Of a stretch of 23,598 nucleotides of DNA, positions 582 to 23,598 are shown in pieces. Location of the stretch: NCBI GenBank assembly GCA_027604505.1, contig JADIIX010000095.1, forward strand, positions 62,001-85,598, written 5' to 3'. The notes beneath the pieces are model-generated. The model did not search any database and was not told where the DNA came from. It saw only the letters and a list, made by a program, of their open reading frames with translations. How positions within the stretch are numbered: position 1 is the stretch's first letter; each line of letters opens with the position of its first letter. The position numbers and the translations under genes are program-made. The stretch is from Gonapodya sp. JEL0774 (Eukaryota).

Positions 582-3500
582 ATGGCTGATGACGCTATCA
601 GAAACCTCGGTGAGGCTCCTGCTCTTCCTCTTCTTAATTACCTTGGAAAGCTCTTACCCTTCCATGAACGATTTCTGTCGTAGAATCTCAAAAGAGATGG
701 CTCAACATGGCCATGGACGACGCTCGGGACTTCAGTGGTATCGAACAGAAAATTCAAAAGTTCAGGGCTACTCTCGACTCATCAATGAGCGTTCTTGCTG
801 GTCATCCCTATGTTGCGTCCGCGCGACAGTATCTGGTTGAACAGGAGGTAATCTCGCTGATTGCGTTTTGCTGATTTCAGATTACGGAAACCGAAACCTC
901 TTCTGCCTCTTTTACTCAAGAATTTATTCATTTTCAAGCAAGCAACCGAGCAAGCAGAAAGGGAAATATCCAAAGCCAAGAATTTGCTCCGGTACGCGGA
1001 GATGTCGATGCCTCAAGTGAGTGAGCAGAGATACTGGTATTGCTTTCGATTGTTAAGCATTACGTTTTTTGCCTAAGCAAATGGATCGTGCCAAGCAACA
1101 AGTACAAGAAGCTATTGCGGTCGCCACTGGGCTCTTGTCCAACCCTCAATACTCTGGCCTTCCTGTGGTGCACGCATTCGCGCCGGCCTTCCTCGCTGGG
1201 CCAGCCAAGGAAATGGACATCAAAGTTAACTCGGCGGCCATCCTTCAAGAGGCTGAAGACAAGATTCGAGTCGCTAAAAACAACTTACGATATGTGCAAG
1301 GACAGCTGGACAGCTCCGTGAGTAGTCCTGGGTCCTCTAAAATCGTGTTCCGTTATTATTCATTCGTGGCTCTATTAGAACGCAGAGGGGGCACAGAGAT
1401 ATCTGAAGGCCGCTCTCGATGCAGCGCAACCCCTTCGTGCTGACCCCAAGTTTCTCATCGTACCGGAAGTTGTCGCTTTCTTGAACGATTTGGCAGTCTC
1501 AGAATCCGAGCTGGGTGCCAAAATCAAACATGTTGGGCTCATTTCAGAGTATCAATCCGCTGTGTACCCTGCGCGGAACCTTGAGCGCCAAATGGGTAAG
1601 TGAACACCATGGAGCCCTCGCGACAATCTCCTGAACTTCTAAACCTGATTCGTTATCAACCGCTTGCAAGAAAATCTCAAAACAATGGACGACGTCACGT
1701 ACATGGGCAAAGATCGTGCCCTAAGCACACTCTCTCAGCTCAAAAAGACCATCGACGATTTCACAGCTCGTTTTGGATCTCTGGACGTCGCTGCACCCAC
1801 CATTCTTTCCATGCGTTCGGCTGCCGAGAAAGCAGAACAGCTACTGGGTGTTGGCCAACGAGCTCCTGAACCACAGGTCGTCGTACGCGCTCCTCCTCCC
1901 CAAGCCAAGCCAGAGCCGCAAATCGTTGTCCCAGCGAGTAGTCAGTCGCGCACGCAGGAGCCGCAGGCGACGCGTGCACCCACTGGACCTCCCATTCAGC
2001 AGCGTAAGTTGTGTGCTTATTGTTTTAAGTTGATGCGACTCTGACTGGGACGGTGCTACATACATTGGTACTTTCTAGTGCCACCTGCGCCGGCGGCCGC
2101 TCCATCGGCGGACATTACCCCTCCTCCAATGGGTCTTTCTGTAGAGAAAGCACAGTCTCTCGTTGAGGCTTCCCGCTCTGAGATTCGATGGGCAAAGTAT
2201 TATGCGAACGAGAACGACTCTAACCGACTGGTGGAGAGGCTCGGCAAGGCGAAAACGATTCTGGCGCCTCTTCTTGCCGAGTCCGCGTCTCCATCTGACT
2301 GGGAGAGAGATAGAACCATTGTCGAGTTTGTGACTACTTTCCGCCAGGACAGCGTGGAACTTGAGGCTAAAGCGGCCGAACTCACTTTCGCGTCCGAGTT
2401 CGACGACGATTCTCGAAAAATTGGCAGACTCATTTCTAATTTACAAAATTACACAGATGCCTACCATTTGGATCGGAGCGGATCCGGCACCGCACTCAAA
2501 TACGTGGATGATCTCTTGAAGTACGTCGAGAACATCAAGAAAAAGTTTGGTACTCAGAGATTGCAAGTTCAGGAGGAATTAAAACGTGCGACGGATGCTA
2601 TCGAGGAAGGCTACAGAAAAGTTGAGGCGTATGAAAAGAACATTTCCGACACCCGTGAGTGTTCCCTCCGAAATAGTTGCTGTGGAATGAACACCGTCTC
2701 AATTAACGAGTAATTCCTATTAGAACGCAACAAACGAACCCGCTTGCTTCCCAAGTTTGAGGAATATTATTCATCTTTGGATGCTCCAGTTCGTGACGCT
2801 CTGTCTTCCCATCAATGTACGGTCTCGGTTGGGCATGGGAAAGCTGTAGCACAGCCATACGTGCTTTGTAACAGCTCTGGATGTCACGACTTTGTTCTTT
2901 GCGGTGCTTGTTACGAAAAGTGCCACCGGGATGGCACCTTCAAGTCCCACCCGGCAGAGTTTGTCTTCCGTGTGGAGTTCGGTGACGCTGCTTGCGATTG
3001 CGGACAAAGCTCAAGGGTGAGTTACGTTACGGACTCCTCATCTCTACTCCATTTCAAGTTTGTTCACACTGACTATGTTTTGCAGTGCCACGCGCAAAGC
3101 AACGTTTCACCCAAATCTTGGCCCGCACCGCCCCCGGGAACAGACGCAGACGTTTCTGACATTCCTGCATCCCAGGACCGAAACATTGTAGTTGCCGTTC
3201 AACCTGCGGTCGACAAACCGGCTGAGCTCTACGATGTTTCGAGCGTCAGGATGCCGTACGGCACACGTATGGTCCTCATCGGACTAAACCACATCGCCAA
3301 CGAATTTAACAAGGCAGGTTCTTGCCCACTGCACTGCCATGTTGACGTACATCTGACACGGAACGCCAACCATGTATTTCATTAGAGTTTCAACGAGGGC
3401 CACACTTTAATCTTGACGACTTCTCAGGCGACGGGGTCCGTCTCGTACTATTCAGTGAACTCTGCGATTTCTAGTTGCATTTCAAAGTTGGAGCACGAAG

Positions 3501-5018
3501 CATCCTTGTTCAGAAACGTCAATGAAGGTAAATTTGATTTCTCAATTTCCTTCTGCAGGAACCTCGCTGAAAAGATTGTTCGTTGCAGTGCTTGAAGAAT
3601 ATCCAAACCCCATCTTAGCCGGCATCGCGAAAGATTTGCAGACGCGCCTCAAATCTCTTGCGATCAACAAGAAGGTCCGCTGGCCTAAGATCGTAGCCGA
3701 TATGGAGAATAACGAGAAAGTGAAGGAGACACTCACCCAGATGAATCGCTACATCGACAATGCGAATGCGGAGACAAACTTGGGCAGGAAGAGAGATGCC
3801 TACAAGGAATTGATTCAGTATGGCCAAATTCGCGTCGACAACGGTGACGATGTGGATTCAGTCACAACTCTATTGGCGGAAGGCCGGAAGCTGTTCCGAG
3901 AAACGACCGAGGCGTACATTCACGAACTTTCCGGAGCCATGTTTTCCCCCGATTGGAATTACATGAATAATTTGGCTGCCGAGATCGAGACCCTCGGTCA
4001 AGATCAAGAACACGCCTCGAGATTGCGGGAATGGATCACCAAAGCCAAAGTGGACAGAGAGCAGAAAGAGGCTGACAAGAAGGAAGAGGATGCGAAGAGA
4101 ATGGCCGAGTACGCAGAGATCAAGAAGAAAGAGGCCGAGGAGCTGCAAAAGAAGCTCAAGGCTATCTACCTTGATCCGTACACTGGTGGGAGGGTGACTG
4201 TAGCCGGAGAGACATGGGAGTACTACTCCAACGGTAAGTGATCTGCGCAAAGGTGCTAGTTTCTAGCTTGTTATCAGTTTTTGGACTGAAAATACTGTTC
4301 ATGCCCTGCACACGTTTTCAGGAACATTAAAGGGACCCCGTTGTGAAATTCGCTTCACTGGCTCCGAGATCCTCCCTGTCTCTGGTCTCCCCAATAGCGG
4401 CTTCTGGAATGGAGAGCGGTTTTCATACTATTGCAACTGGAAGACGATTGTTACTCACAGCTGGAACGATTCCAACAGAACTTTCTCACCAACATTCACC
4501 GAGGCGCTGCTGCCAGTGACGTGGAGATGGGACGGAGAGGAGCTGATTCCTACAGACGAGATACACCGGAAGATGATCGCAAATGTGAAAGGATCTGTTC
4601 CCTTGCCGGTCGTTTTGTTCGCCAGCATGTTTGGTTGGCTCCAAGGTGAGGTCCACTTCGGATGGTCATCCGTCACAGAGGTTCAAAATTCAATGACCTC
4701 TTTTGATCACGCCACACGCCAGACATCCTCCCCCGCATTAACGGCGAACGACTCTGTCGCTCAACACTCTGGGACAATGACGCCGCCCGCCACCGTCACG
4801 GCAAAATATGCCGCAACTGCCGTGCCCACGGTACATCACACACATGTCCGATCTGCGTTGCCAAGATCTACTTCCCGCGCGTTCCAGCAAAGACGTGTGG
4901 TAGTGGATCGTGTCCGGATAGGTGTGTGAGGTGCCAAGGTTTGAGTGATTTGGTGCCGGCGTACTTGTGCGATGACTGCGGGAGGAACTTCGGAAAGAAC
5001 TGTGTGTATTGGAGATGA
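582..5018 (+). CDS. About 1187-aa multidomain protein: helical repeats, Pro-rich linker, UBR-box-like Zn finger, charged helix, Trp/Gly beta-rich segment, C-terminal PHF5A/Rds3-like Zn knot
   Basis: Hand-spliced 13 exons with consistent phases and no internal stop: 582-609, 684-847, 939-1016, 1078-1317, 1379-1595, 1671-2003, 2079-2654, 2724-3016, 3086-3313, 3386-3527, 3589-4233, 4322-4645, 4723-5018 (sum 3564 nt). Donors are gtgag/gtaag/gtaat/gtaaa type, plus one probable GC donor at 3314. Starts MADDAIRNLESQKRW and ends NCVYWR*. Confidence 0.85.
2816..3088 (+). other. UBR-box-like zinc finger domain within the 582-5018 gene
   Basis: CTVSVGHGKAVAQPYVLCNSSGCHDFVLCGACYEKCH...H...AACDCGQSSR|C matches the UBR-box pattern C..Q-x-x-Y-x-C..C..C-x2-C-x3-CH..H..CDCG..C seen in UBR4/UBR7/FBXO11-type boxes. 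Confidence 0.75.
4755..5015 (+). other. PHF5A/Rds3-like 12-Cys zinc-knot domain (last exon of the 582-5018 gene)
   Basis: LCRSTLWDNDAARHRHGKICRNCRAHGTSHTCPICVAKIYFPRVPAKTCGSGSCPDRCVRCQGLSDLVPAYLCDDCGRNFGKNCVYWR has 1+2+2+2+2+2+1 Cys, with G(R/K)xC, RCVxC and AYxC motifs as in PHF5A. Confidence 0.7.
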
Positions 5019-6147
5019 TTCAAGCGATCTAGAATGAAGCACCGATGACTCTGGCAGAATATCGGAGAAGCTTTGCATTTTTCAGGGAACAAACGAGCAA
5101 ATTTGAAGAAGCAGGGACTGGGTGTCGTGTGTAGCAAGCTTTTGAAGAATAATATAAGACATATCTAAGATCTTCAAAGTCGGTGTTTCTTGGATGGTTG
5201 AAAGAGTGCAAATGAAGGAAGGTTAGTCCTGAGGACCAGTGCGAACGAACGGGGGAGGGGGGGAAGGTTCCACGGAGAGGAACCAAAAATAATTCAAGGA
5301 AACAATGTCCTTACATATAATCAATTATGAACGGGAATATTACATGTGATATGTGTGCTACGGTGTAAAGAAATTGCCAGGGCATCCGGGATTACCTCGC
5401 AGGGAATCTCTGTTTTTCCGCGAAGACGCGCTTCATATGTGAAGTTTGAGAGGAGGAAAGTGTACACGTGACAGCAATCGGAATATGCAAAATATTGAAG
5501 GAAGTAGCGATTGATGGTGCGCGGAACTCACGACGGGAAGGAAGAGAAATCAAGTCGGCGAAGTTTTTTTTTTCAGGGTCAAAGAGGAATTTCGGAACCC
5601 TCACCGACGAGAGAACAGTTTCTCTCTTTGTCAAATCCAGTGTGGTTGCTTTGAAAAATGAAATTTAATTCTACTCGTAGAAAGAAGTGATTCCGCGAAA
5701 CTTGAGTTTGTGGCGTTTGCTATACGTAAGGAGTTGGTTGGACGAGAAAACAAGAGCACACCGAACGCTCGGAGAGGTCCGAGATCGTGTTTCATAACAT
5801 AGAAATAGTCCGACGATTTTAATAAAAATCTTGCAGTGTACCGGTGTCTAAAAAGTACTTTGAACACAAGTATCCAGTGAGAATGAGGCCTACCAGCCAT
5901 TCTTGACCCCATTGAAACAGCACCAGCGTCTCAGCTGGACTTATCTGTCTTGGTGGTCGTCTCGAAGAGCGCTGTGGCGTCGGTGCATTTTGCTTGAGGC
6001 GGTGTGTGTTGGTGGGAGAGTTTGAGTGAGGATCCAATTAAACCCCCGTCACCACATCACGTGGCGTTTGAACTCGGGAAACTCCGGAACCATTTGATGC
6101 AGTTGCACGTCGAAAATCCACTCAACAGCAGTTTCGGGCGCCCGCCG

Positions 6148-8540
6148 ATGGCTTTCGAAGGCGATGGAATGCGCGTAGCAGGGACTTTTGGACTGATGGG
6201 TGGGGAGAGCCTCAACGATCCGGCTCGCTCGACGGGTTCGGGCTCATTGCAGCGTCGGCGAGCAGCGCCCGCGCCGCTCATAACAAGTGGACACGTTACT
6301 GGGCAGAGCGCGGAATTTTTCCGCGGGAACCAGAACTCGGGGGAGGAGTCTGCGGCCCGAGGCGAGAGGAGCAGGGGTGAGAGTATGGTCGACAGAGGGC
6401 ACGGTGGACGCGAGCCGAACAATGGGAACGCAGGAAATGTTGGAAACGGGAGCGATCCGTACAGCTTGAGCGCGAACTCGAGTACGCTCCACTCGCAGCG
6501 ATACACGGGAGACGCTTTGAGAAATCAACACCAGCAAACCCCAAACTATCAAGGAATGGCTGCGCTGTCGGAGAACGGAAGTCCTCTCCCATATGCTGCT
6601 CATTCCGCGGAGCCCATCAATCAGCACTCCCCGTCAGCCTCTTCGCTGGCTTCCCTGCCAACACCTCTCACAGCACCAGCGATTTCTCCCCATGGTTTGC
6701 CCTTCTCATATGGAACTAGCACAGATCCGCAACCCATTCAACAACGCGCCCACTCTGGCTACCCATCATCTTCATCATCTTCGGTCAGTGTTATTCAAGG
6801 CCAAGGACCACCTTTGCTCTGTCTTACCTTTGAAAACCACCCTCAACTTGACACCCCCGTGTCTGCGAATCCACAGCGAATGAGCGATCTACAGCCCCAC
6901 CACCCCATGGAAGACATTACGACCTCTCAGGATCTTCTTAGATTGCAGATGCTTCAAAACGCTCACTATGGACAAGGGCCAAAGGTACCGGGTGTTGGAC
7001 TCGGAGCTGCTGATATGTGGAACAATGGCACTGGTATTCCTGGAGCTCACATCAACCAGTTTGGGAGAACGGAAGGTGTTGGTGCTACGAAAATCTCAAA
7101 TGACATGAATGACCCACCAACCCCTCAGTGGGGTCCAACTTCGTTCCCTGGAAGGAACGGAACCTCGACGGGGCCGACCACCTCAAGCCCCCATCGCACT
7201 GCTGGGCAGGGCGAAGCCACTACCACTGCAACTGGCTCAGGTACTCCCAACCCTCCCCCTAACAACCTCGGCGGAGGAGCCACCTTCACTCAATCGTATA
7301 GTGGAACTCCATTTCCTTCCGGGGGTTTCAACCCAGCCGCTGCAATTACGAATTCACAGCAAGCTCCAACCACACACTCCCCCTCCCGACCTCACCCTTC
7401 TGACTGGGACCCAACTCCCCCCGTTAAACGTCAGCGCTCAACTCCTACATACACTTCCTACTCTCAAATGCCTTCTTCGCACCACCGTCCGTCTTACGCT
7501 CCCTCGCCAGCCCCTGTTACTGCGCTTGCAGCTAGGCTGGAGCCCTATGTGGGCGTTTGGGCGTTTGATGTGAGTCGGTCCGACAGGGTAGAGGATGTTA
7601 TGGTCGCGATGGGGTTTCCTTGGATGAGACGGTCGATTTTGGCGAGAATGAGGGTGAAGATATGGAATGGAGATGTGAGTGAACGGTGGGGGTTGTGGAC
7701 GACGTTTTTGGGGCTTCCCATATTGACCGGAAACCCTTGGGCACCGCGGTCACATCAGCTTGATGGCACTGCTACAATTCTGGTTCAGACTCTTATTGGT
7801 ACGTACTTACATGTGGGACTGGGGGAATGGTTTCGTGGCCACGTTGGCTTGAGGAAGGAAGAGGAACGGTTGTCCACAGCCCAGTTCACCTCTGGATGAT
7901 CGCCAAATGAATCAGCGTGGCCACCTTGGCATGAAGAAGGAAGTAGAGCCGATTAGCACGGGTTGCCCACAGACCTACGTCACCACTGGATGATCGCCAA
8001 ATGAATCGGACGGGGGACCGTGGAAGGTCACGTCAGTGGCGAAATTGCCCCGACTCATCACCTTTCAGACCAGGCCCGATCAAATTCTCGAACACCGAGA
8101 GCATCCAAAGGACCTTACTGTCGCGGTGCTCTTAGTGCATCTATGTCTGTCCGTCCTGCGTTAGTCCTCTGGCACATTTTGTCGTGGTGCTGATCATGAT
8201 ATCCCTCTGTCACCATCCAATTCTCCCAGACACACATCCTCTCGACACTACCACCCATATCCTCGACGGCATACCTCGCCTTAACCCTCGCCTCCCCTCA
8301 CTCACCTCGCGATCATTTCTCGATCCTGCCACGAACTGTGTCATGGTTGAGTCCAGAAACACCGCGACGGGGCGCCAGTATGAGTGTCGGGCAGAGTGGG
8401 CCTTGTCCAGACTGGTACAGGGAACGGGTCAGGGAATAGGACAGCAAGGAGTGGCGATGGAACGAAGGATAACTGTAAGCGGTGGGGCAGGAGACGGTGG
8501 CCTGCGACAATATAGGGTTGGATATGCAAAGATTGGTTAA
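6148..8540 (+). CDS. About 625-aa protein: long Ser/Pro/Gly/Gln-rich disordered region plus C-terminal FABP/lipocalin (calycin)-like domain
   Basis: ATG in ccgccgATGG context at 6148 (an in-frame ATG at 6097 is an alternative). Exons 6148-7674, 7759-7798 and 8230-8540 join in frame (WNGD|LDGTATILVQTLI D THPLDTTTHILDG...YAKIG*). YVGVWAFDVSRSDRVEDVMVAMGFPWMRR resembles the FABP N-terminal G-x-W...S(D/E)xxxDxMxAxG signature. Confidence 0.75.
7834..8009. repeat. Diverged tandem duplication (about 82 and 94 bp units) inside intron 2 of the FABP-like gene
   Basis: cgtggccacgttggcttgaggaaggaag...tcacctctggatgatcgccaaatgaatc (7834-7915) versus cgtggccaccttggcatgaagaaggaag...tcaccactggatgatcgccaaatgaatc (7916-8009). 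Confidence 0.8.
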
Positions 8541-9496
8541 GCGGTTACGGTTGGAGACGAGTGAGTCTTACAACAGACAAGGACAATAGAGTGACTTCGC
8601 ATGGACATGGAGTGGACGAGAAACGGGGACGAGTGTGGCAGTTTTCGACATTCATGATTGAAGTGGTGTAGGTGCTTGTGGCCACTGCACTTGGCGATAT
8701 GACGACAACAGCTATTTCACTGACCGGCGCACAATACACTGTCACGGACACCCAAATCACAAACCACGGACGGACTCTTTTTCTACGTACTTCGTCTGCT
8801 CTGCTCTGCATCATTACCCCGCACTGTCATGGGAATCGGCAGAACAAACGGTTCCGTCTATATATCCACACACTTGTGTATGTCTTTATTTCGAGATTGG
8901 AGAACAAGAAGCGTGTTTTGCGAGGTGTTCTTGTATCATTCTGTAGGAAGTTCAAAAAATTACAATAAGCAAATAGAGAGTTATTCATTTTTCACGTGTC
9001 CGGCAGATATGTACTTTCTTCGCGTGTCCCGTACATATCTTGTTCATGGAACCCTTGTTTCCGGATCGCTTGTGTCTCGGCGCTGGAAACATATTTAGAG
9101 CTCTTCTGTCCCAGTAACAATATAATTATTGATATTGCGCTACCCACGGGGAGAGACGCAATGCCAGAATCAGACTTGAGAAGGTGTATTCATATTAACT
9201 AGAAGAGAATTTCCGATTCCGAACACAACAAGCTCAACTTCCGGGAATCTTCTTCTTCATCCACGATCGTTTTGTCTCACACATACGCGTCTGCCGGATA
9301 GAGCAGTCTGGACAGCGCGGGGTTCCCAGAGACTGTGGCTAAGCCACACTCCCACAGCAAACAAGCTATACAAATTAGTTGGAAGAGACTAAAGACATCA
9401 CATCCCTCATGATGCATTTCTAAAGGCCGACGCAACAAAAAGTCCTCGTTTTGCTTTCTTCCTCCTTCCTCGTTCACAACCATGCCTTGCTAAACC

Positions 9497-10347
9497 CTAC
9501 TCGTCAGCAAGAGGGGGAGGTGGTGGAGCCGGATCCTCGGAGATAATCGACGGGATACACTTCCCGGAGCTCGGGTATTTGTAGTCACACATGTACGGCT
9601 TGACGCAGTAACTGCCGAACCGATCACAACACTCGGCGTTTGGGACGTCAATGATGCGGGGATTGGGTTCTCCGTTGGACTGCCAGTTGCACTGAGATGG
9701 AGAAGCTGCACGATCAATGTCCTAGACTATCTTGTCAGGTGTAACTTACGCAGGTCTTTGTTCCATTGTATTGATCCATGCAGTCACGACCACAAGGGGA
9801 TTTGCATTTGACTGTGCCACGAGTTAAAGGTGACACGCCAAACAACACCCCAAGCAGATGAACATATCAAAAAGGGTAATCCCATTTAGTTTCCTTCACT
9901 GATTTCCACAGCGGCTTCGCCGGCCTACCTGGCACACATGCGTTTGTTACTGGGTCGCATTTCGCAAAGTCAGGCGCAGTCCACGGACAGCACTTGTCAC
10001 CACAACATACTTCGCCAACGGCCCAAAATACCGAGTTATGGCATCTGAGGGACATTGTGGCGTTGCACTGAAGGAAGGTGATAATGGGGTGCGGTGAGGA
10101 AGCGGAGGTAGTGGAAACCGGAAAAGTGTTGTTCGGGCTATGGAAACACACAACTTACACAAGGACCCCACGGATCATCGTAGCAACTTGTCCCACAACA
10201 GTTGTCCCGCGGTCTTACTCTGCGGGAACCGATTGGATTCGTGATCGAGGTCGGCATCGCCGAAGACGGAGAGGGGAGCACCCCGAGGACAAGGGCGAGA
10301 ACCCAGACGAGAAGGACAGACGCAGCTGATGAGCGCGGTAAGTGCAT
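9497..10347 (-). CDS. Secreted cysteine-rich prepro-protein A (194 aa, 22 Cys in two granulin-like modules)
   Basis: Exons 10347-10159, 10067-9929, 9811-9750 and 9691-9497, all GT-AG and in frame: MHLPRSSAASVLLVWVLALVLGVLPSPSSA-MPTSITNPIGSRRVRPR-DNCCGTSCYDDPWGPC|CNATMSLRCHNSVFWAVGEVCCGDKCCPWTAPDFAKCDPVTNACVP V KCKSPCGRDCMDQYNGTKTC|CNWQSNGEPNPRIIDVPNAECCDRFGSYCVKPYMCDYKYPSSGKCIPSIISEDPAPPPPPLADE*. Exon 2-4 lengths (139/62/195 nt) are identical in paralog B. Confidence 0.88.
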
Positions 10348-10411
10348 GAGCAGGTATGGAGCCCACGGCAAGGTGAATGGAAAATGTGTGAAGTGATAAG
10401 TTCTTGGGCGA

Positions 10412-10424
10412 CACCGCCACGGAC
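10412..10424. promoter_or_regulatory. Candidate shared cis-element CACCGCCACGGAC upstream of Cys-rich gene A
   Basis: An identical 13-mer occurs at 12394-12406 upstream of paralog B, in otherwise diverged flanks. Confidence 0.35.
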
Positions 10425-11033
10425 GCAGCTCCCGCTCAAGGGTCTGTGGGGAGCAAACTCAAAGCAGGCAGAATTGCTAGAGCCACAGACACCTATGATA
10501 CCGAAAATATGTACAGTGAGAGACTATGACTGGTGTGCGTTAGTTAGTCAAAGAACGGGGGAGGGGGTTGCGCGCTTCACCAAAATTCAGCATTCAAATT
10601 CATTTCTAGAAGAAAATACTGGAGTTTTGCATGAAACTCTGCTTCTAAGTACTATTTTTGCTCTGCAATGTTGTACTTTTGCCGATACGAGGGGGTTTGG
10701 GAAAAAAACCTGTGGGGATTCCCACGGCCGCATCATGTTGTGCTTTTCCAATAAGAAAACAGGATCCACAGAGAACACGTGCTTTTTGAGAAGTGCGTAG
10801 GGCAACTCCATTTGCACCCGTAATGTGCGACGTGTAGAGAAAAGTGGGACACAGTGACAATCGTGACCGGGGGCGGGGAAGACTCTTAGCGCTTCGTTGC
10901 ACAGGCAAAGAAGCGCCAAGTTTTCAGTGTTCAGAGAGTTAAGCACTGACTGATGAAGCACGCTCTACTTAATTATTAATGACCACAGGAACTGTTTACA
11001 GGACACAACAAGAGACCCTGACAAAACTGCGAG

Positions 11034-11084
11034 ATACAGATTAAAACATCATACCACATACAGATTAAAACATCATACCACATA
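11034..11084. repeat. Perfect 24-bp tandem duplication (atacagattaaaacatcataccac x2) downstream of gene B
   Basis: Units at 11034-11057 and 11058-11081, plus 3 further matching bases. Confidence 0.9.
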
Positions 11085-11171
11085 ATGCAAGCTTCCGAAG
11101 GCGAAAGCAGTAAAAACACCCATGGTCACATGTTCCCTCTTTCGTCGTTCACAACGATGCCGTGCGAAACC

Positions 11172-12291
11172 CTACTCGTCAGCAAGAGGGGGAGGTGGTG
11201 GAGCCGGATCCTCGGAGATAGTCGACGGGATACACTTCCCGGAGATCGGGGATTTGTAGTCGCACATGTACGGCTTGACGCAGTAACTGCCGAACCGATC
11301 ACAACACTCGGCGTTTGGGACGTCAATGACGCGGGGATTGGGTTCTCCGTTGTACTGCCAGTTGCACTGAGAAGGAGAAGCTGCACGATCAATGTCCGAG
11401 TCTATCTTGTCGGTTATAACTCACGCAGGTCTTTGTTCCGTTGTATTGATCCATGCAAGTGGAACCGCAAGGATTTGCGCATGTGACTGTGCCATACGAC
11501 AAAAACATATCGCGACCAGAATGGATCCGCCCCGACCACGAGCCAGGCAAAGGAACAGAGAAAGTGTAAGGCCAAAAAATTAGAACCAGAAGGTGGTGAG
11601 AATTACAAGACTGACTTGATGAGTCGCAGGACTGAAACCACAGTTGTGCCCGCGCAGCCCCCGAGCCAACCCACTGTTCACACATGTCAACGTGTTCCAA
11701 TCACACCTGGCATAGTTTGGCGCCACCCAAGGGCAGCATTTATCCCCGCAGCATCTTGCGCCACCGAGGCCGATCGACGAGGAGTGGCATATGAGGCTCA
11801 AGGAGGCGTTGCACTTGGGGAAGGGGGGAGGGAGACCGGTGAGGTGGTGGGTAGTATTAGTTAGATGTAAGATCAGATGGGAGGCCGAGATTGGCAATTG
11901 AGGGTCGTGGGAGCAAGTGGTGTGTGCGGCCTCCACGGTGCCTTTTACACATACCCCACCCCCCTCCCGCGGGCTAACTCACACAAGCATGAAAGCCCCC
12001 GTCCCCGCACACATTCCCACACGGGTCTGAGCACTGCCGGGGCGCGACGTGGGGTCCACGTCCACCGAGTGGTTCGCGGAGGTCGAGCCGGAGGTGGTGG
12101 GGCAGTGGGGCACCAGAGCCGGAACCGAAGAGGTCAGCGGCACCGTCGGTAATGTCATCCGTGTCTGTGGTCGTGATCTTGGGCGTTGGAGTGGCGCCTA
12201 CGCGCGGGGTGGCGAGGAGGGCGAGTGCGAGAGCTAGAAGGACGAGCAGGGGTAGGGGGAGGGGAGTGGGGCGAAGGCGGGCACGGTGCAT
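11172..12291 (-). CDS. Secreted cysteine-rich prepro-protein B (234 aa, 22 Cys), tandem paralog of gene A
   Basis: Exons 12291-11983, 11813-11675, 11486-11425 and 11366-11172: MHRARLRPTPLPLPLLVLLALALALLATPRVGA-(acidic pro-region)-HVAPR-QCSDPCGNVCGDGGFHAC|CNASLSLICHSSSIGLGGARCCGDKCCPWVAPNYARCDWNTLTCVN I TCANPCGSTCMDQYNGTKTC|CNWQYNGEPNPRVIDVPNAECCDRFGSYCVKPYMCDYKSPISGKCIPSTISEDPAPPPPPLADE*. Intron positions and phases (0,1,0) match gene A. Confidence 0.88.
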
Positions 12292-15331: not shown

Positions 15332-18300
15332 TCAGTTGTCGTCCAGATCCATATCTCCGACAACCCGACCCGTAGCAAGGGCCGCCAATACCGGAGCTAC
15401 ATATTTGCCGGGTATTCGAATGCCTATACGGAGAGAAACAACCCCCATGAACCCACACGTCAGCGCAGACACACAAAAAAAAACCCGAGGAAAGGAGCCG
15501 CAACGCGGACGGGCAGGGCATCGCGCGCCACTCACCAATTATCCGCCGGTCGTTCTCTGTGATAGTTGCGCGGACGATCTTGATGCGGTCATTGCACCCC
15601 GACGCGACGAGAGCATCTTCGACTCTGGTCCAGACTATGAAACACGAACAACAAAGTGATATCGATAGTTGGTGTGGGACTCCCAGCCTGTAAATGACAG
15701 ATATGACTGTGCCAGATTGAGAACACGTACCTGGAACGACAGCTCCAGCGAGAATATGGTACTCGCGGATTCGCTTCCCGATAAAACATTCTCCCCCAGT
15801 TCTGACCGTCTTACAGAACCCATCCCGGGAAATCATGGCGTGCACACACCGGGTGGCACTCCCTTCGAATTGACGATTCCTAGCAGCATAAAAACGCAAA
15901 CGAAAAACATTTGTGTGTTGATAGGTGAATGTGTTTGAGCGAGCGGAGCCGGAATGAAAAGGTGCGCAAGGACACCCCGCCTCACCAAAGCTTCTCTGCC
16001 TTGGCCATCAGTTTCTCCCCAGTGACTCGTGTGTGAGTGCGCGTGAGATCATTCCAGAACGCGATGCTCAAGACCTCTCCGAGATGGGGTCTATATTAAA
16101 GATGTCAAAGAAGGGGAGTGAGAATTACGTCCAATAAACCATTCCGTTGCCAGCCCCTTTCCAAAGGTTTGTGAGTGAGCCTCACTTGTAAACTCGCGCA
16201 TGAACCCCTGATCTGCCCGCATCTTTAGCCAGAATACAAGATTCTCCGTTCGATGAAATGTAGAACCCGTTCTTCGGATGATCATTTTGGCAGTCGTTGA
16301 ATATTTCAAGGGCGTGTTCAAAACGGAGACCTTTTTACAGGTGATAACCATTGTGCTCTTCAAATCTTGTGGAATCGCACACGAGATGGACAAACCTCTG
16401 TCTACTCGGAGTGAAAAGTGATGCGTCCTTATCTTTGAGAACGCGTCTTCAAAGACCGTTGCAGGGTCATTTGCAAGCTCTACCGTGCAGTGCATGCCAC
16501 CAATGTCCTCTTTTCGACACAAAAGAGAGTGGGTTGAGAGCTCATTTGGAAAATGAAACACACTGTTCACCGCTCTTACCTATTCCGGCGTCCAGTTGGC
16601 CATTCCTGCGAGCTTCGTCGAGCACAATCTGATATGAAGAAATCAATATTGTGATGAGCACGAACAAAGGTAGAGTCTCAGGAAGAGGGATTCTCACCTT
16701 CAGGTGACGTAAAAAGTAATCGAAGATTTTGTTTTGTAGAGTAACTGGATGGATTCCAAGCAATCTTGTATACAACCGACCATTGACACCAATACGATAA
16801 GTGAAGGGAAATCCACGCCGCCTTGCTTACCGATTCAGAAACTTCTTGACCTTTGCCTCGTCGGTGCCGTTGTCTGCCAGATCCATAGCCTCGAAAGCGG
16901 ATCTCACTTGACTGAAGAAACCACTGGGGTCAACTCCCTCGGGCAAGAAATCTGGCGGAACCACATTTTGGGATCGACCATCGACGCTGGCATGTAACTG
17001 ATGCGAGATTGGGGGTGATTGTCGATTGATCAGACTTACTGGAGATTTGATATTATTCTTGAATGAGCGAGTGTATTACTCACGGCTTCCAAAGCCGACT
17101 TGCCCCATTTCGTCTCAAAATTAAAATCTGACAGGGAAATTCCATCTGCAGCTCGCCGATCCCCCTTGGTTAGCGCACCTAGAGATTCCAGTCGCTTTGC
17201 TACCTACACCCAAGGAAAGCAGGATGGTGAATTACTCGGAAAGATTCCGCCACTGGGCAACGCAATTATTATTGATCCACTTACAGCACTTGCAAATCTC
17301 ATTTCCCCTCCGATGTCCGATATGACCAAAACGTACTCCGGAGCGGAGCTTTGATTTGAGCGGTGTGTTCTCCCGAGCTGTTGGATTGCCTTGTCGGCAC
17401 TCCATGCAAGCTCAATAGTAATGTGAACTCGGCGGCGTTGATTATTTACACGGCGATCCGCTTCAACATTATAACACTGTCAGTGTACGTGCAAGAAATT
17501 GAGGGCAAGCAAATCTACCTTGTAGCGAGATTCCGGCGCTCGCAGCGTCACTGATGATTGCAACATGCTTTCGACCAGATTGGAAGGCATCCCGTTCTAG
17601 AAGATTGACATCCTTCTTTGCAATACCACCAGTATTTCTCGCCTCGTACGTGAACCTGGAAGGGTCGTATGGATCTACAACAGCTCGCATGGAACGGCCA
17701 GTGAGCTATTGAAAAGTTGCTAAAAGTGAAAGTCGATAAGTGATGATAACTCGCGGCAGACTTGCCTCGGCAACCTCTGAAGGTCCCCCAAGGGAAGTGA
17801 TGAGAGAATCAAGCGGATTGTTGGGAAGTGCCAGGAGGTCAATTTTCTGTTGATTGAGATCCGTCAAATGAGCCACCAGTCGTGTATGACATCAATCGGT
17901 TTGCAGCGAAGAACTTACTGATTTCAGGCCCAGGGCAATTGCTGGAACTGTTTCCTTGGAGAATGAAACAAACCCGAGTAGCTGACTGGACATTGCGCTG
18001 AAGTTGAGTTCGTCGGGTGCGCTTCCAATCGTTAAACCGAACTGAGCGCTAATACTCGAGGTCGATAGACATTCTTCATTAGTAGTGATTGCGGACAACC
18101 ACGGCGCCTGTGGCAAAAGGTGTCTGTTGTAGTCGTCCGTAGTGCCCGTACTTCACAGCAAGAATGAGTAGAGGGAACAATTAGAGATGACCTTCGATAT
18201 TCCAATATTCTCAGTACTTACGGTAATGTTGAAATCCCTCTGGAAGACAGATTATTTACACTCTTGGCTTCATCGAAGGGAGAAGAATTGTACTTTGAAG

Positions 18301-21300
18301 GCACCAATTTTTGCACCGATACGACGTTGGGATTCCCAACATTGACTTCACACATAGCATTCTCGAATCTGGTCGGGGCTTTGGAAACTGGTGCATCTTT
18401 ACCCCCTTTCGGTGGATTTTCACCTTCATCTGTATCCGAGCCAATGATCGTGGAACGTTTGGCCCTCTTCGGCATCTGTCGTGACACACCGTTGCGAACC
18501 CCTCTTCCAAAAAAGCTCTCTTCGGAGAATTCGTCATCGTCGCTGTCCATCATTACCGGCTGATCATTATCGCTCCTCTTCAATCGTCGGTGGCTTTCGA
18601 CATTCATCTGAAAGTCTGACTCTGTGTCCGAATTTTCAGCATTTTTGTAGTTGGCCGCCGCACGACGACTGCGTCCAGTTCTAGGATCGTACTTAAGCTG
18701 TGGAGGTGAAGCAAGCGTACATTGACAAGTGGAGATAAGCGATTGTCCGTTGCGATAAAAAATGCGACGAAGTAATCACCTTTGCGGGCGCAATACGACG
18801 GTCTCCAACACGCATTTTGCGCTTCCTCAGTCTGACATTTCCATGTTCGTCTTCCGACGCAATCTCCATTTCACAATCATCACTTGCAACGTCTTTAGAG
18901 TCGTCACTCTCATCCTCGAGTTCTGATTCGGAAGCAAGAGTATTGGACTTGCGTGCCCGGACAGACCGCACGTTCCCTACTTTGATCCCAAAGCATTTGA
19001 GTGCAAAGTAGTCCACTAAGCCTTTTGCAACCTCGCGTGGAGCAGACACCTAAGGACAGTGGTGATTACATGGAGCAGGTATCGGACTGGGACTTCCCGA
19101 ATACCCACTAGGTCATCCAAATCGTCACCATCGTCTTCAAGACGTTCCGCGGTGCGGGCTTCCCCAGTCCCTTGAAGACCAATAACCACAGACTTGAGGC
19201 ATGGCCGTGAAAATGATCAGTTAATAATCGCTTTGGGTATTATACGAGGCAAATACTGAAACACCTTGCCCTCTCGAAGAGCGCATTTCGCGAGCTCGAT
19301 AGTTTTTGGCACCTTCGCGGAGATGCAGAGGTATTTAAAAAATCGTTGCTTAAGCGACATGACCACACGGTGTGAATAACTATGATAATTAGGACGAGCA
19401 CCACAAGAGATCCACTCACGAAACATCCCCAATAATATCTCCACAGAGCTGCCCTCTTCTTGCCATCCAAAGGCTCCGTTGCATTTGTCACCCAGGATCC
19501 CAAGATAATTTTGATATCTCCCCATAGCTTCGCTGCATCATCATAAGAAATTGTTGTTTGATCAAGCTCAAATTTGGCGATTTCAAAAGATGCTTCAGAG
19601 TACGAGAGAGTACGAGAGAGGTACATTCCCATAGCTTTCATATCGCATGCAACACACTCCATTGCACCAGCCCCTCGTTGGCTAACCGCACTTAAGAACG
19701 ATCCGAAATTCGGAAACGGCGCTTTTGTGGAAAAGAATTAGAAAATGAGGCACATCAAGAAGCGACACATCGAAGATTACACACTATTCTCCCCCCAAAG
19801 ACCGAGCCTGACCATGTACGCCATGTTTCGGGGCTCCGAAGCTCCAGTAGCACTAACGTATAGCACACGGGCATTGGGTAGCTTCTCCTGAAATGGGATG
19901 TAAGAATGGGAGGTAAGACTTGATGCACGAGAATTGTGCTTTCATTACACCCGCACTGAAGAGCGGAGACACAAACCTGTATTTCGAGGATAGCCTTACC
20001 CGTTTGGGTTCCTTTCTGTTCTGAGACCCCCATATCGCCTTTCTTTTTGCCGGGTGGAACGAGGTTCTTTCCCTTATGCGACTCATCAAATATAAGAAGA
20101 CCTTCAAATGCTTCACCGCCTGGACGGATTTTGAGTCACTTAAAATGGGCATGCTCGATTCTCCAGGGCCAACTCACCACAATACTCAACAATTTGTCCA
20201 ATTCTTGTGTCGGTAACGCGACGAACCTTCTGAGCGTGCCCGATGAGAGTGGCGTAAGTCGAGAAAAGAACACCTCGCCCAAAGGGTAAACTGCCAAAAG
20301 GTTGCTGGGGGATGTTTGGAGAGGCGATTTGCAATCGGAGCTCGCACTTCCATCTCACTGAAAAGACACGACTCACGCCGGTCAAGCTGTAAAGCTTCAC
20401 GTCCCCTGCCCCGACATCTTTCAAGTCACGATGGGCGTCCTCCACCAGGTCAGCTGATATAGAGAACCAAACAGCTCGATCTCGACGGCTCGGGGGAGAA
20501 GCCCAAAGTGTCGACGAAGGAGATGCAGCAGCGTGCAATTGATTCTCGAGTACGCTGTGATTCAGGTTGAAAGTAATGACAAGTTGAAGATTCGACTTGC
20601 AATCGTATCGACAACTGTACACACATGCCAGCTATGGACCGTCCTTTACCCACACCCGCACCCTTAGCAAAGCATGAGTTGAGGTTACCAGACGGGATCA
20701 TCAAGATCATGAGAAAACTGGGCAGGAACATGACGTGGTCACGGTACTCACGTCTCCAATAAAGAAGCCCGCGCGTTCTCTCCCATTGGGAAGCATCATG
20801 TTATGTCGCTGAGAAGCGTAGACAAGATTCTCGAGTTGGATCTAGCGAAAAGTATGCGATGTGTTCTTATTGAACGCACTAGCCTTCATATTCTTCTTAA
20901 CTCAAATCACCTTGCTCATTGCTCCTTCTTCTATAATTTTTTTCCCTCTTGGATCCGTCAGTAATTTGGGTTCATAGGTGATTGGAGGCAAGGAACAGGC
21001 AGCGAGAGAGGCGGCTTCGGGAGAACGACATCCATTTCAACTTTTACCAGTGGCCAACATTGAAAAACTCCACAAAGCACCCACCTTCTACCAACGGATC
21101 TGGATGATCTTTTCCGTATGGCAACGTACTCTCGTAAGTTGCGAACCTTGCCTTCCTCGCTTCCTCGTCCTCGTCTTCGTTCACCCGATCGGCACTGTCC
21201 TCATCGAGAATGTCCGATGCAGAGGTTGTGGCGGGCACTGGATTTGCAACAGGTAATCCAGTAGTTTGCGGAGCAGTCGTGTCAGGAGGATTCGGCATAC

Positions 21301-22636
21301 GTCGATGGTTTGCGTACTTGCGGGGCAGGTTGGTGTTGCCCCAAAGTGTTTTCACATTGCCTAAATTTGAGGTCGGGCGAGGCACGGGGTGCGCTGAAGT
21401 AGTAGTCGCGGGAAGTGTCGGAGGAGCAGGTGTTGTGGAGAACGCCTGGCGATCGGAGGGCGCAGATGGAGGAGGCAGAGATGTGCTTGCCAATGCGCTT
21501 GCGCGGACAAAACTGGACCCCTGCAAGGGTATAGGCGAAACTCCTTTCGTCGTACGCGCATTTGGTGTCGAAGATTGAGATGGTTCGGGACGAAGATTTG
21601 GAGCGACTGTTTGGGGCAGTCCGGAGGATAAAGAGACTTTGTGGGCCAACGATTTGCTTGAGGGTTTGTTTTGCTGAGGGTTGATATTAGTGACAGTGTC
21701 ATCCTCTACCACAATGATTGGTAGATCTGCGGTGGGGCCGGCGGGGATTTTGCTGGAAGACGAATCACTTCCCGAGAGCGAGCTCGTCAATGGCACTTCT
21801 GAAATACGATCAGAGTGTGCCGGTGATTTGTTCTGTGGAGTGGAGTTCGGAGGGTTGCAGCTCTCTGTTGAGAGTATACTGGTGGTCGGTGATTCTTCGA
21901 CAACTCTACTGTCTGTTCCGTTGGTGGGTTTGGTTGAGGTTTGGCCTGCAGGGTTGTCTATCGAAAGCGTGTTGGTAGAGGCCAGATTTCCCATGTTACT
22001 CGTCTCCACCACTGGTCGAGTCGAAGTGGTGTTATTCCTGGCAGCATCTGTGGTTTCTGCAGGAGGCGGGTCGACACGCACAGATTTCTGGACTACCGGC
22101 GGGGAGATCGACGCAGGAACTCTGTCACTCGTGAAGGAGCTTTTCAACAGATTTTCAGGAATCTCCGCGGTTTCGGCTGCGATTCCTCGTTTCGCCGTCT
22201 GTGTCGGCCTCCTGTTGACTATCTGCTCGTGCGGCGTCAACGGGCGCCTTCTATCCCCAATGAGCGAAGAGTTGGGCGGTGATGAGCGCGGAGTTTTGGA
22301 GAAGTACGAGAAAAGAGTGCCGTCCCGAAGCTTGGACGAGTCACCAGAGAAAGGTGAAGAGCTCGACACAGTTTTGTAGTTGCCTCGACCAGAAACATCT
22401 CTCGAACGGTCATCGATACGCTGTACAATATCAATTTCATCGTCGTCGTCGTCCATTGTGAGGTCAATGGGTTCTCCCCGGTACGGTTGACGTTCGCCCG
22501 GAGCAGTTCCGGACGAGGACGGCGCATTCTGCCGACCAGGGACAGACGGTTTCGGTGGTTCGACTCGGCGTGGTTGAGGTTTCTTCAAGAGCGGGGTACG
22601 GGATCCAGGACGTGATCCGTGCTGGCGGCTGCTCAT
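15332..22636 (-). CDS. SBNO: Strawberry notch (SBNO1/2, Sno, plant FGT1-like) SF2 helicase-like nuclear protein with a long disordered N-terminus
   Basis: Spliced motifs in the expected order: [39 protein letters not shown] (Walker A, exon 20662-20625), [46 protein letters not shown] (Walker B, about 20076-20087), [181 protein letters not shown], ending GIRIPGKYV...DLDDN* (stop at 15332). The start at ATG 22636 (MSSRQH) is inferred. Confidence 0.95.
17706..17765 (-). other. Non-canonical GC-AG intron (60 nt) in SBNO
   Basis: GAG|gcaagt...ttttcaatag|CTC ACT GGC CGT restores the conserved EVAE-LTGR motif. Confidence 0.8.
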
Positions 22637-22667
22637 GAATGGTGGAGTGTCGAGGATGGATCGGTAC

Positions 22668-22738
22668 CTGACAATCAGACGGTTGATTCGACTCGTCTTG
22701 AGTCCCTGGTGACGGCGAGGTGACAGCTGAGAACTCAC
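22668..22738 (-). other. Probable 5'-UTR intron of SBNO
   Basis: Minus strand gtgagt...ctgattgtcag, 71 nt long, ending about 30 nt upstream of the ATG at 22636. Confidence 0.4.
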
Positions 22739-23598
22739 AGTAAGCCTGATGCTTGTTCGGAGATCTTGTATCCGCACACGAGGTGGCCGCCTTCACTTGG
22801 TCTTGTTTCGGAGATTCACGCGGAAGTGGGTACGAAAGAAGGTTCGAATCAGTAGGAGCAGAGGAAATCTTCAATCGCTTGAGCGCAATCTGCAATTCAG
22901 ATATACGGCAGGTTGGGCGAACTCAGAGTGAAAGTGAAAAGCCAACTATTGGATTTGGGCGTTTGCGAAGACAGACGCGGAATGGACCACCAGCTCTGAA
23001 CAGACGCACAATGTACAGTGCATACAAGAAAAAGTGTTGGCCCGCAAAACATACAGGCCCACAGATGAAGTCATGATCAAAGATTTTGCTCCTTAGCGGT
23101 CACATTCCTTGGCTGTGTAATTATGTATGTCCACCGTCGAGGTCTCCACAGCGACTCGCACCCGGTCTTTCTCACCGTCACTACAAGTAAAGCGGCCTCA
23201 ACATGTGAACACGCCGGCCAAGGGGTGGGATGAGTGTTTGCTCCTGCCTCGGTGGATGAACCAACGGGCGGCCGGGGAGCTGGCAATGGGGAGTGGGGCA
23301 GTGGGGAATTCCCGTATCGACGACGTCCCAATCAGTCACAATCGACAGGGACATGTGTTTGTGTATGTGTGTGGATTTTGACATTGTGTAAAAAACTTTT
23401 GGTGTTGTGTTGTTTATGTATTTATTGGGGATTGGGCACGGGCACACCACCAAGGAAGACCACAACGACCCGATCAAACGGTTCCAAATGTCGTGAACAA
23501 AAATCACACATACCCGGCAAGTACCCGGCAAGCACAACCACTGTTCCACCGTCCACAGTTCACCGTCCTCCGTCCACCATCCCCCGGCCCCCCCCCCC

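Follow-up and report, generated by a model that had tools for sequence, protein, structure and literature searches.

Two unannotated tandem genes for predicted secreted 22-cysteine proteins in Gonapodya sp. JEL0774

The stretch of DNA analysed here (the window) comprises 23,598 nt of contig JADIIX010000095.1 from Gonapodya sp. JEL0774, a member of the Monoblepharidomycetes, which we take to be a saprotrophic zoosporic fungus and not a pathogen. Two neighbouring genes of the window, designated gene A and gene B, are an unannotated orphan pair of genes for small, predicted secreted cysteine (Cys)-rich proteins, real but of an ordinary kind. The reading preferred here, and one that we consider probable, is that A and B encode tandem paralogous 22-Cys proteins that are predicted to be secreted, are likely folded into two disulfide-locked modules and act as stable extracellular binders, possibly antimicrobial or toxin-like.

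Both genes are located on the minus strand, and all positions are given in window numbering. Gene A (9497-10347) is composed of four exons with a total of 585 nt encoding 194 aa, and gene B (11172-12291) of four exons with a total of 705 nt encoding 234 aa. In gene A, exon 1 (10159..10347) contains the start codon, a hydrophobic leader, a short spacer with RRVR and the first 4 Cys of module 1 (CC,C,C); exon 2 (9929..10067) contains the last 8 Cys of module 1, the sequon NAT and the motif CCGDKCCPW; exon 3 (9750..9811) contains the first 4 Cys of module 2 (C-x3-C-x3-C-x9-C) and the sequon NGT; and exon 4 (9497..9691) contains the last 6 Cys of module 2, including PNAECC, the tail PAPPPPPLADE and the stop codon TAG. 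In gene B, the start codon, the hydrophobic leader, a Thr/Asp/Gly-rich spacer of about 50 residues and the first 4 Cys of module 1 (C-x3-C-x3-C-x7-C) are found in exon 1 (11983..12291), the last 8 Cys of module 1 with the sequon NAS and CCGDKCCPW in exon 2 (11675..11813), the first 4 Cys of module 2 with the sequon NGT in exon 3 (11425..11486), and the last 6 Cys of module 2, the tail PAPPPPPLADE and the stop codon TAG in exon 4 (11172..11366).

All six introns have GT..AG borders, and the intron phases (0,1,0) are identical between the two genes. The introns are 91, 117 and 58 nt long in gene A and 169, 188 and 58 nt long in gene B, with intron 2 donors of GTAGGC in A, a less common form, and GTGGGT in B. 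Within its stop-to-stop frame, each start codon is the earliest ATG. Both proteins are small and contain 22 Cys, a Cys share of 9-11% (22/234 and 22/194). These four-exon models agree with the initial annotation, which had proposed a tandem pair of intron-hidden genes with 22 Cys each, and the Cys positions confirm the division into a 12-Cys and a 10-Cys module in both proteins. The motif CCGDKCCP, to which it had drawn attention, is present as CCGDKCCPW in exon 2 of both genes, and PNAECC and the proline tail are present in both copies of exon 4. The Cys grouping that it had given, C,C,C,CC,C,CC,CC,C,C, is correct for B but not for A, where module 1 reads CC,C,CC,C,CC,CC,C,C; the first loop of gene A is 3 residues shorter at the first Cys, yet its module 1 keeps 12 Cys.

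Genes A and B are real coding paralogues, and their exon 2 is under purifying selection. The exon 2 translations agree at 26 of 46 positions, among them 8 of 8 Cys, and the exon 2 DNA is 64% identical, with a nonsynonymous rate (dN) of 0.41, a synonymous rate (dS) of 1.72 and a dN/dS of 0.24. Identity is 37% in intron 1 and 42% in intron 2, where gaps take up about half of the columns. The constraint on exon 2, while the introns flanking it cannot be aligned, indicates that the two genes are real coding paralogues, and the retention of the frame, the splice phases, the leader and all Cys despite saturated silent sites indicates coding sequence under selection. The GC content at third codon positions (0.59 and 0.68) was higher than the intronic GC content (0.48 and 0.54), and the only matches obtained by tblastn within the window were the two genes themselves.

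To compare the modules, local alignment scores were set against 2000 composition-preserving shuffles. Module 1 of B aligned with module 2 of B at a score of 76 (shuffle mean 32.3, sd 6.3; z 6.9) and with module 2 of A at a score of 71 (z 6.4), scores that were reached by 0 of the 2000 shuffles in either case. Module 1 of A gave a score of 55 against module 2 of B (z 2.9; reached by 22/2000 shuffles) and of 48 against module 2 of A (z 2.3; 60/2000). Both modules start with C-x3-C-x3-C-x7/9-CC-N, the spacing from the split CC to the next CC is 19 residues in both, and in both the first CC is itself split, Cys from Cys, by a phase-0 intron, which divides the Cys 4|8 in module 1 and 4|6 in module 2. 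The grouping in module 2 is C,C,C,CC,CC,C,C,C. Judged by alignment and Cys spacing, the module of 12 Cys and that of 10 Cys repeat a single unit, C-x3-C-x3-C-x7/9-C|C-x19-CC..., which is a new result of this analysis.

At the DNA level, the sole stretch common to A and B by blastn lies in their 3' halves. The tract in gene A (9461..9819, minus strand) aligns with 11136..11494 of the minus strand in gene B with 91.7% identity over 362 columns and takes in exons 3 and 4, the intron between them (intron 3) and 36 nt beyond the stop codon, where the similarity stops. Identical nucleotides amount to 51/62 in exon 3, 51/58 in intron 3 and 189/195 in exon 4. Among the ungapped mismatches of exon 3, 13 of 14 fall within its first half (9783-9808), and from 9782 down to 9461 there are just 19 mismatches in 322 nt (about 94% identical, intron included). 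For exons 3 and 4 together the dS was 0.12, and the dN/dS of 0.65 is based on few changes. Since the intron and the 3' flank are as similar as the exons, and lie beside a 5' half with saturated silent sites, the tract between mid-exon 3 and a point just beyond the stop codon carries the signature of a recent gene conversion or partial re-duplication. The genes probably arose from a two-exon module that underwent intragenic duplication, followed by tandem gene duplication and then by homogenisation of the 3' half. Downstream of gene B, about 90 nt from its stop codon, two head-to-tail copies of a 24-nt unit (ATACAGATTAAAACATCATACCAC) are present (11034-11081), and gene A has no counterpart of them.

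Each protein has one N-terminal hydrophobic core after a basic start, with 11-residue Kyte-Doolittle maxima of 3.34 and 3.29, and essentially no further hydrophobic window. Judged by this hydropathy, the N-terminal leader that had been proposed for both proteins is upheld as a prediction, and no C-terminal stretch fit for a membrane or GPI (glycosylphosphatidylinositol) anchor was seen in the hydropathy profile of A or B. Sequons are conserved at the start of exon 2 (NAT/NAS) and in exon 3 (NGT). From the first Cys on, the computed mass is about 16 kDa and the computed isoelectric point (pI) about 4.8. For the pro-region of the initial annotation the result is divided: spacers can be read from the sequence in both proteins, but RRVR lies close before the first Cys in A only and the spacer of B is without a dibasic site, so that a shared pro-region cleavage is not evident.

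For A and B, the proposed working is as follows. The proteins would enter the endoplasmic reticulum via the hydrophobic leader, would be N-glycosylated at the conserved NAT/NAS and NGT sequons, and would form disulfides within each module; the even Cys count per module makes six bonds from 12 Cys and five bonds from 10 Cys possible. After release, they would be stable acidic proteins carrying no membrane or GPI anchor, and may serve outside the cell in competition with, or defence against, other microbes, or in polysaccharide or cell-wall binding. By analogy with small secreted Cys-rich proteins of fungi, the role is probably extracellular binding, and any particular target or biological role is a guess.

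Several points weigh against the reading of A and B as secreted, two-module, disulfide-locked binders. The Pfam scans and the folding were run on single exons (seven exon translations were scanned), not on whole modules. The AlphaFold2 models, built from single exons with two-sequence alignments, contain short beta-hairpins at a mean predicted local distance difference test score (pLDDT) of 65.9 for exon 2 and 69.0 for exon 4, a middling confidence that leaves the predicted fold and disulfide pairing weak. The proposed splice junctions were placed solely by comparison of the two paralogues, and the near-identity of module 2 and the proline tail says little about selection. That queries of 46-64 aa returned no relatives speaks only weakly for their absence. 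The suggested binding or antimicrobial role is a prior taken from small secreted Cys-rich proteins generally, with no observation favouring one target.

With the same genes and the same secretion, the proteins might instead act in polysaccharide or cell-wall binding, as a novel carbohydrate-binding or surface-coating module and not by action on other organisms. Between its Cys, module 2 carries many residues of exposed type, both aromatic and amide (W, Y, N, Q, G), and the acidic pI of 4.8 is unlike that of the many antimicrobial peptides that are cationic; these two features may slightly favour polysaccharide or wall binding over defence. Fungal small secreted cysteine-rich proteins are described in the available text of PMC8596622 with properties that extend from toxic to surface-active, which would accommodate such a role. 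However, no Pfam family, whether carbohydrate-binding module (CBM), hydrophobin, CFEM or another, was matched on any exon at E<=10, and an anchor signal is absent by hydropathy. An exclusive role in polysaccharide or wall binding is regarded as rather unlikely, and extracellular binding in the wider sense is retained. Well-known fungal families of the kind named in the initial annotation were likewise unmatched in Pfam on the exons at E<=10 (hydrophobin, CFEM, CBM1, CBM18 and cerato-platanin), the modules being split between exons.

Genes A and B were missed by gene callers, and no public protein holds their exon 2 or exon 4 in frame. The neighbouring minus-strand gene piece matched in the searched libraries a protein of 1749 aa (P0003), named strawberry notch 1 by NCBI and assigned to Gonapodya sp. 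JEL0774. By tblastn, its residues 1-517 are 100% identical to 22636-21086, and the identity of further exons, down to 15335, is 97-100%, with lower values only where alignments cross introns. Since the annotated protein of the neighbour is present in these libraries, yet exon 4 and exon 2 are absent from them, A and B are truly hidden.

Searches for relatives gave the same picture. Exon 4 had no phmmer match at E<=0.001 in 1,835,955,588 representative proteins, and word-based searches among longer proteins with the exon 4 and exon 2 queries returned none. In metagenome contigs, 55 pattern matches were obtained for exon 4, of which 0 were confirmed, and for exon 2 the 2 confirmed out of 300 were both chance CCGDKCC words. 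In the ESM Atlas, exon 4 had no usable match and exon 2 scored 0.83 or lower. The two metagenome candidates were rejected as relatives: in L002 (897-989) CCGDKCC is antisense to a transposase-like frame, and in L001 (4-78) it lies inside an unrelated Lys/Glu-rich protein. As these two cases illustrate, short Cys-rich word matches can arise by chance, and pattern-based matches need checking. A and B are likely a small lineage-specific orphan family.

The apparent want of calls for A and B in the public annotation of the genome, the failure to find relatives and the less common intron 2 donor of gene A (GTAGGC; GTGGGT in B) would also suit pseudogene copies in decay, or open frames paired by chance, that are not expressed, with the four-exon models as artefacts. 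This explanation is improbable, more so than an exclusive wall-binding role, for in both genes the frames are intact across three introns with equal phases, and the start codon, the leader and 22 Cys are retained despite a dS of 1.72, while the introns have diverged past alignment and the exons have not. In addition, the plus-strand and intergenic frames across the region are without a Pfam match, and the plus-strand frames are also without such features.

The initial annotation had compared the modules with granulins, the canonical Cys grouping of which is C,C,CC,CC,CC,CC,C,C with short loops of fixed length, and this granulin-like reading was not borne out. The Pfam Granulin model (PF00396), a check that it had proposed, gave no row on the seven exon translations at E<=10, exon 2 alone holding 8 of the 12 Cys of module 1, including the supposedly granulin-like half. 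The sole Pfam row for the exons was TGF_beta_GS at E 0.69, a chance level. Searches with PDB sequence profiles returned no granulin chain at E<=10 and no chain at all for exon 2. For exon 4, four profile rows at E 0.5-1.1 (proepiregulin, trypsin inhibitor, alginate lyase and cellulase) were taken as chance. A literature search for granulin found nothing on Gonapodya, and nothing relevant on chytrids.

The Cys positions and the exon structure point in the same direction. The groupings of module 1 of B, module 1 of A and module 2 all differ from the canonical granulin grouping, as do the loop lengths, so that the deviation from true granulin conceded in the initial annotation is confirmed. According to the available text of PMC4527844, a granulin module is defined by a conserved 12-Cys pattern with two double Cys in its N half, and the N-type exon holds the first six Cys, ending four residues past the second double Cys, while the C-type exon holds the last six. 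In A and B the intron lies inside a CC pair and the exon split is 4|8 and 4|6, in contrast to 6|6 in granulin.

Structural searches were likewise without a significant granulin match. For the exon 2 model, Foldseek returned a single row at E 5.5. Seven rows were returned for the exon 4 model at E 2.9-9.6, consisting of three disulfide-rich mini-proteins and four chains in ribosome entries, and among the seven were zebrafish granulin AaE (E 5.4, 30 columns, root-mean-square deviation 2.6, 37% identity), conotoxin MiXXVIIA (E 6.3) and spider toxin Ssp1a (toxin rows E 2.9-6.3). Conotoxin MiXXVIIA has a mini-granulin fold, and AlphaFold can give a wrong disulfide connectivity to such peptides, as stated in the available text of PMC11035057. 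On re-alignment of the exon 4 Foldseek rows with VIA, 0 of 7 reached Z>=2. The VIA wide search of 48,161 chains gave 0 chains at Z>=2 for the exon 4 model and 2 for the exon 2 model (MutM and Fusarium Avr1/SIX4, Z 2.1-2.2), which are not meaningful, and neither wide search listed a granulin.

In profile, Cys grouping and exon split A and B do not conform to granulin, though the local motif echo is real. That they are nonetheless true granulin/epithelin modules, diverged as a fungal remnant and forming a mini-progranulin that is cut into bioactive modules, is the least probable of the explanations considered: the 12 Cys of module 1, the motifs PNAECC and CCGDKCCP, the latter with two single Cys after it, the beta-hairpins with CC on strands in the single-exon models, and the presence of granulin AaE and the mini-granulin conotoxin among the seven exon 4 rows are outweighed by the unmatched Pfam and PDB profiles, the different grouping, loops and intron site, and Foldseek rows far from significance. 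True granulin descent would mean that a monoblepharid kept and remodelled an ancient unikont granulin module that other fungi have, to our knowledge, lost, with one doublet Cys moved and the intron shifted, and that these are the first fungal hairpin-stack modules; this too is most doubtful. Palfree et al. (2015) report, in the available text of PMC4527844, no Grn-related genes in any fungus. Of the alternative offered in the initial annotation, a toxin/effector-like disulfide scaffold, the new scaffold fits the evidence, whereas 'toxin/effector-like' is a guess.

Elsewhere in the window, a multi-exon strawberry-notch-like helicase gene (15335-22636, minus strand; Pfam AAA_34 and SBNO), the one with exons 97-100% identical to P0003, was observed, and the long low-complexity frame at 21044-22792 is its first exon and not a separate gene. 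On the plus strand, a 633-codon open frame rich in Ser/Pro/Gly/Thr/Gln (5998-7899) had no Pfam match at E<=0.001 and probably represents an exon of a low-complexity protein. Four successive open frames, each 220-260 codons long (2045-4929, plus strand), contain CxxC-rich stretches at 2852-3001 and 4785-4934; with one weak B-box-like zinc-finger row (ANCHR-like_BBOX, E 0.021), they likely belong to one multi-exon zinc-finger gene.

If real, A and B represent, in an early-diverging fungus, a family of secreted disulfide-rich proteins that is restricted to its lineage and has escaped annotation. That short genes with several introns, coding for Cys-rich secreted proteins, are missed by annotation implies that secretome counts of zoosporic fungi are probably too low. 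The pair is also a possible new disulfide scaffold for structural work, and its anatomy is instructive in the internal duplication, the intron inside a CC pair and the putative conversion tract. The view that fungi lack granulins is at present unchanged.

Compared with known systems, A and B share with granulin/epithelin (PF00396; progranulin) secretion, here predicted, a module of 12 Cys in about 55-60 residues with several CC doublets, local motifs resembling CCxDxxxCCP and PNAxCC, and beta-hairpins, which in A and B are likewise predicted. They differ from it in the want of a hidden Markov model or PDB sequence match, in Cys grouping, loops and intron site, and in fold rows that are insignificant, and granulins are reported as absent from fungi in the available text of PMC4527844. 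Conotoxin MiXXVIIA and spider toxin Ssp1a, both weak exon 4 Foldseek rows, are similar as short disulfide-stapled beta-hairpins; unlike A and B, which have two modules of 12 and 10 Cys and are glycoprotein-sized, they are single venom peptides of 30-35 residues with 6-8 Cys. The fungal small secreted cysteine-rich proteins (hydrophobins, CFEM, cerato-platanins, hyphosphere and effector-like proteins) resemble A and B in having a leader and fewer than 300 aa, and in being tandem duplicated, lineage-restricted and often unannotated. While no named family among them was matched, what sets A and B apart is the arrangement of 22 Cys in an internally duplicated two-module layout, which is unusual for such proteins.

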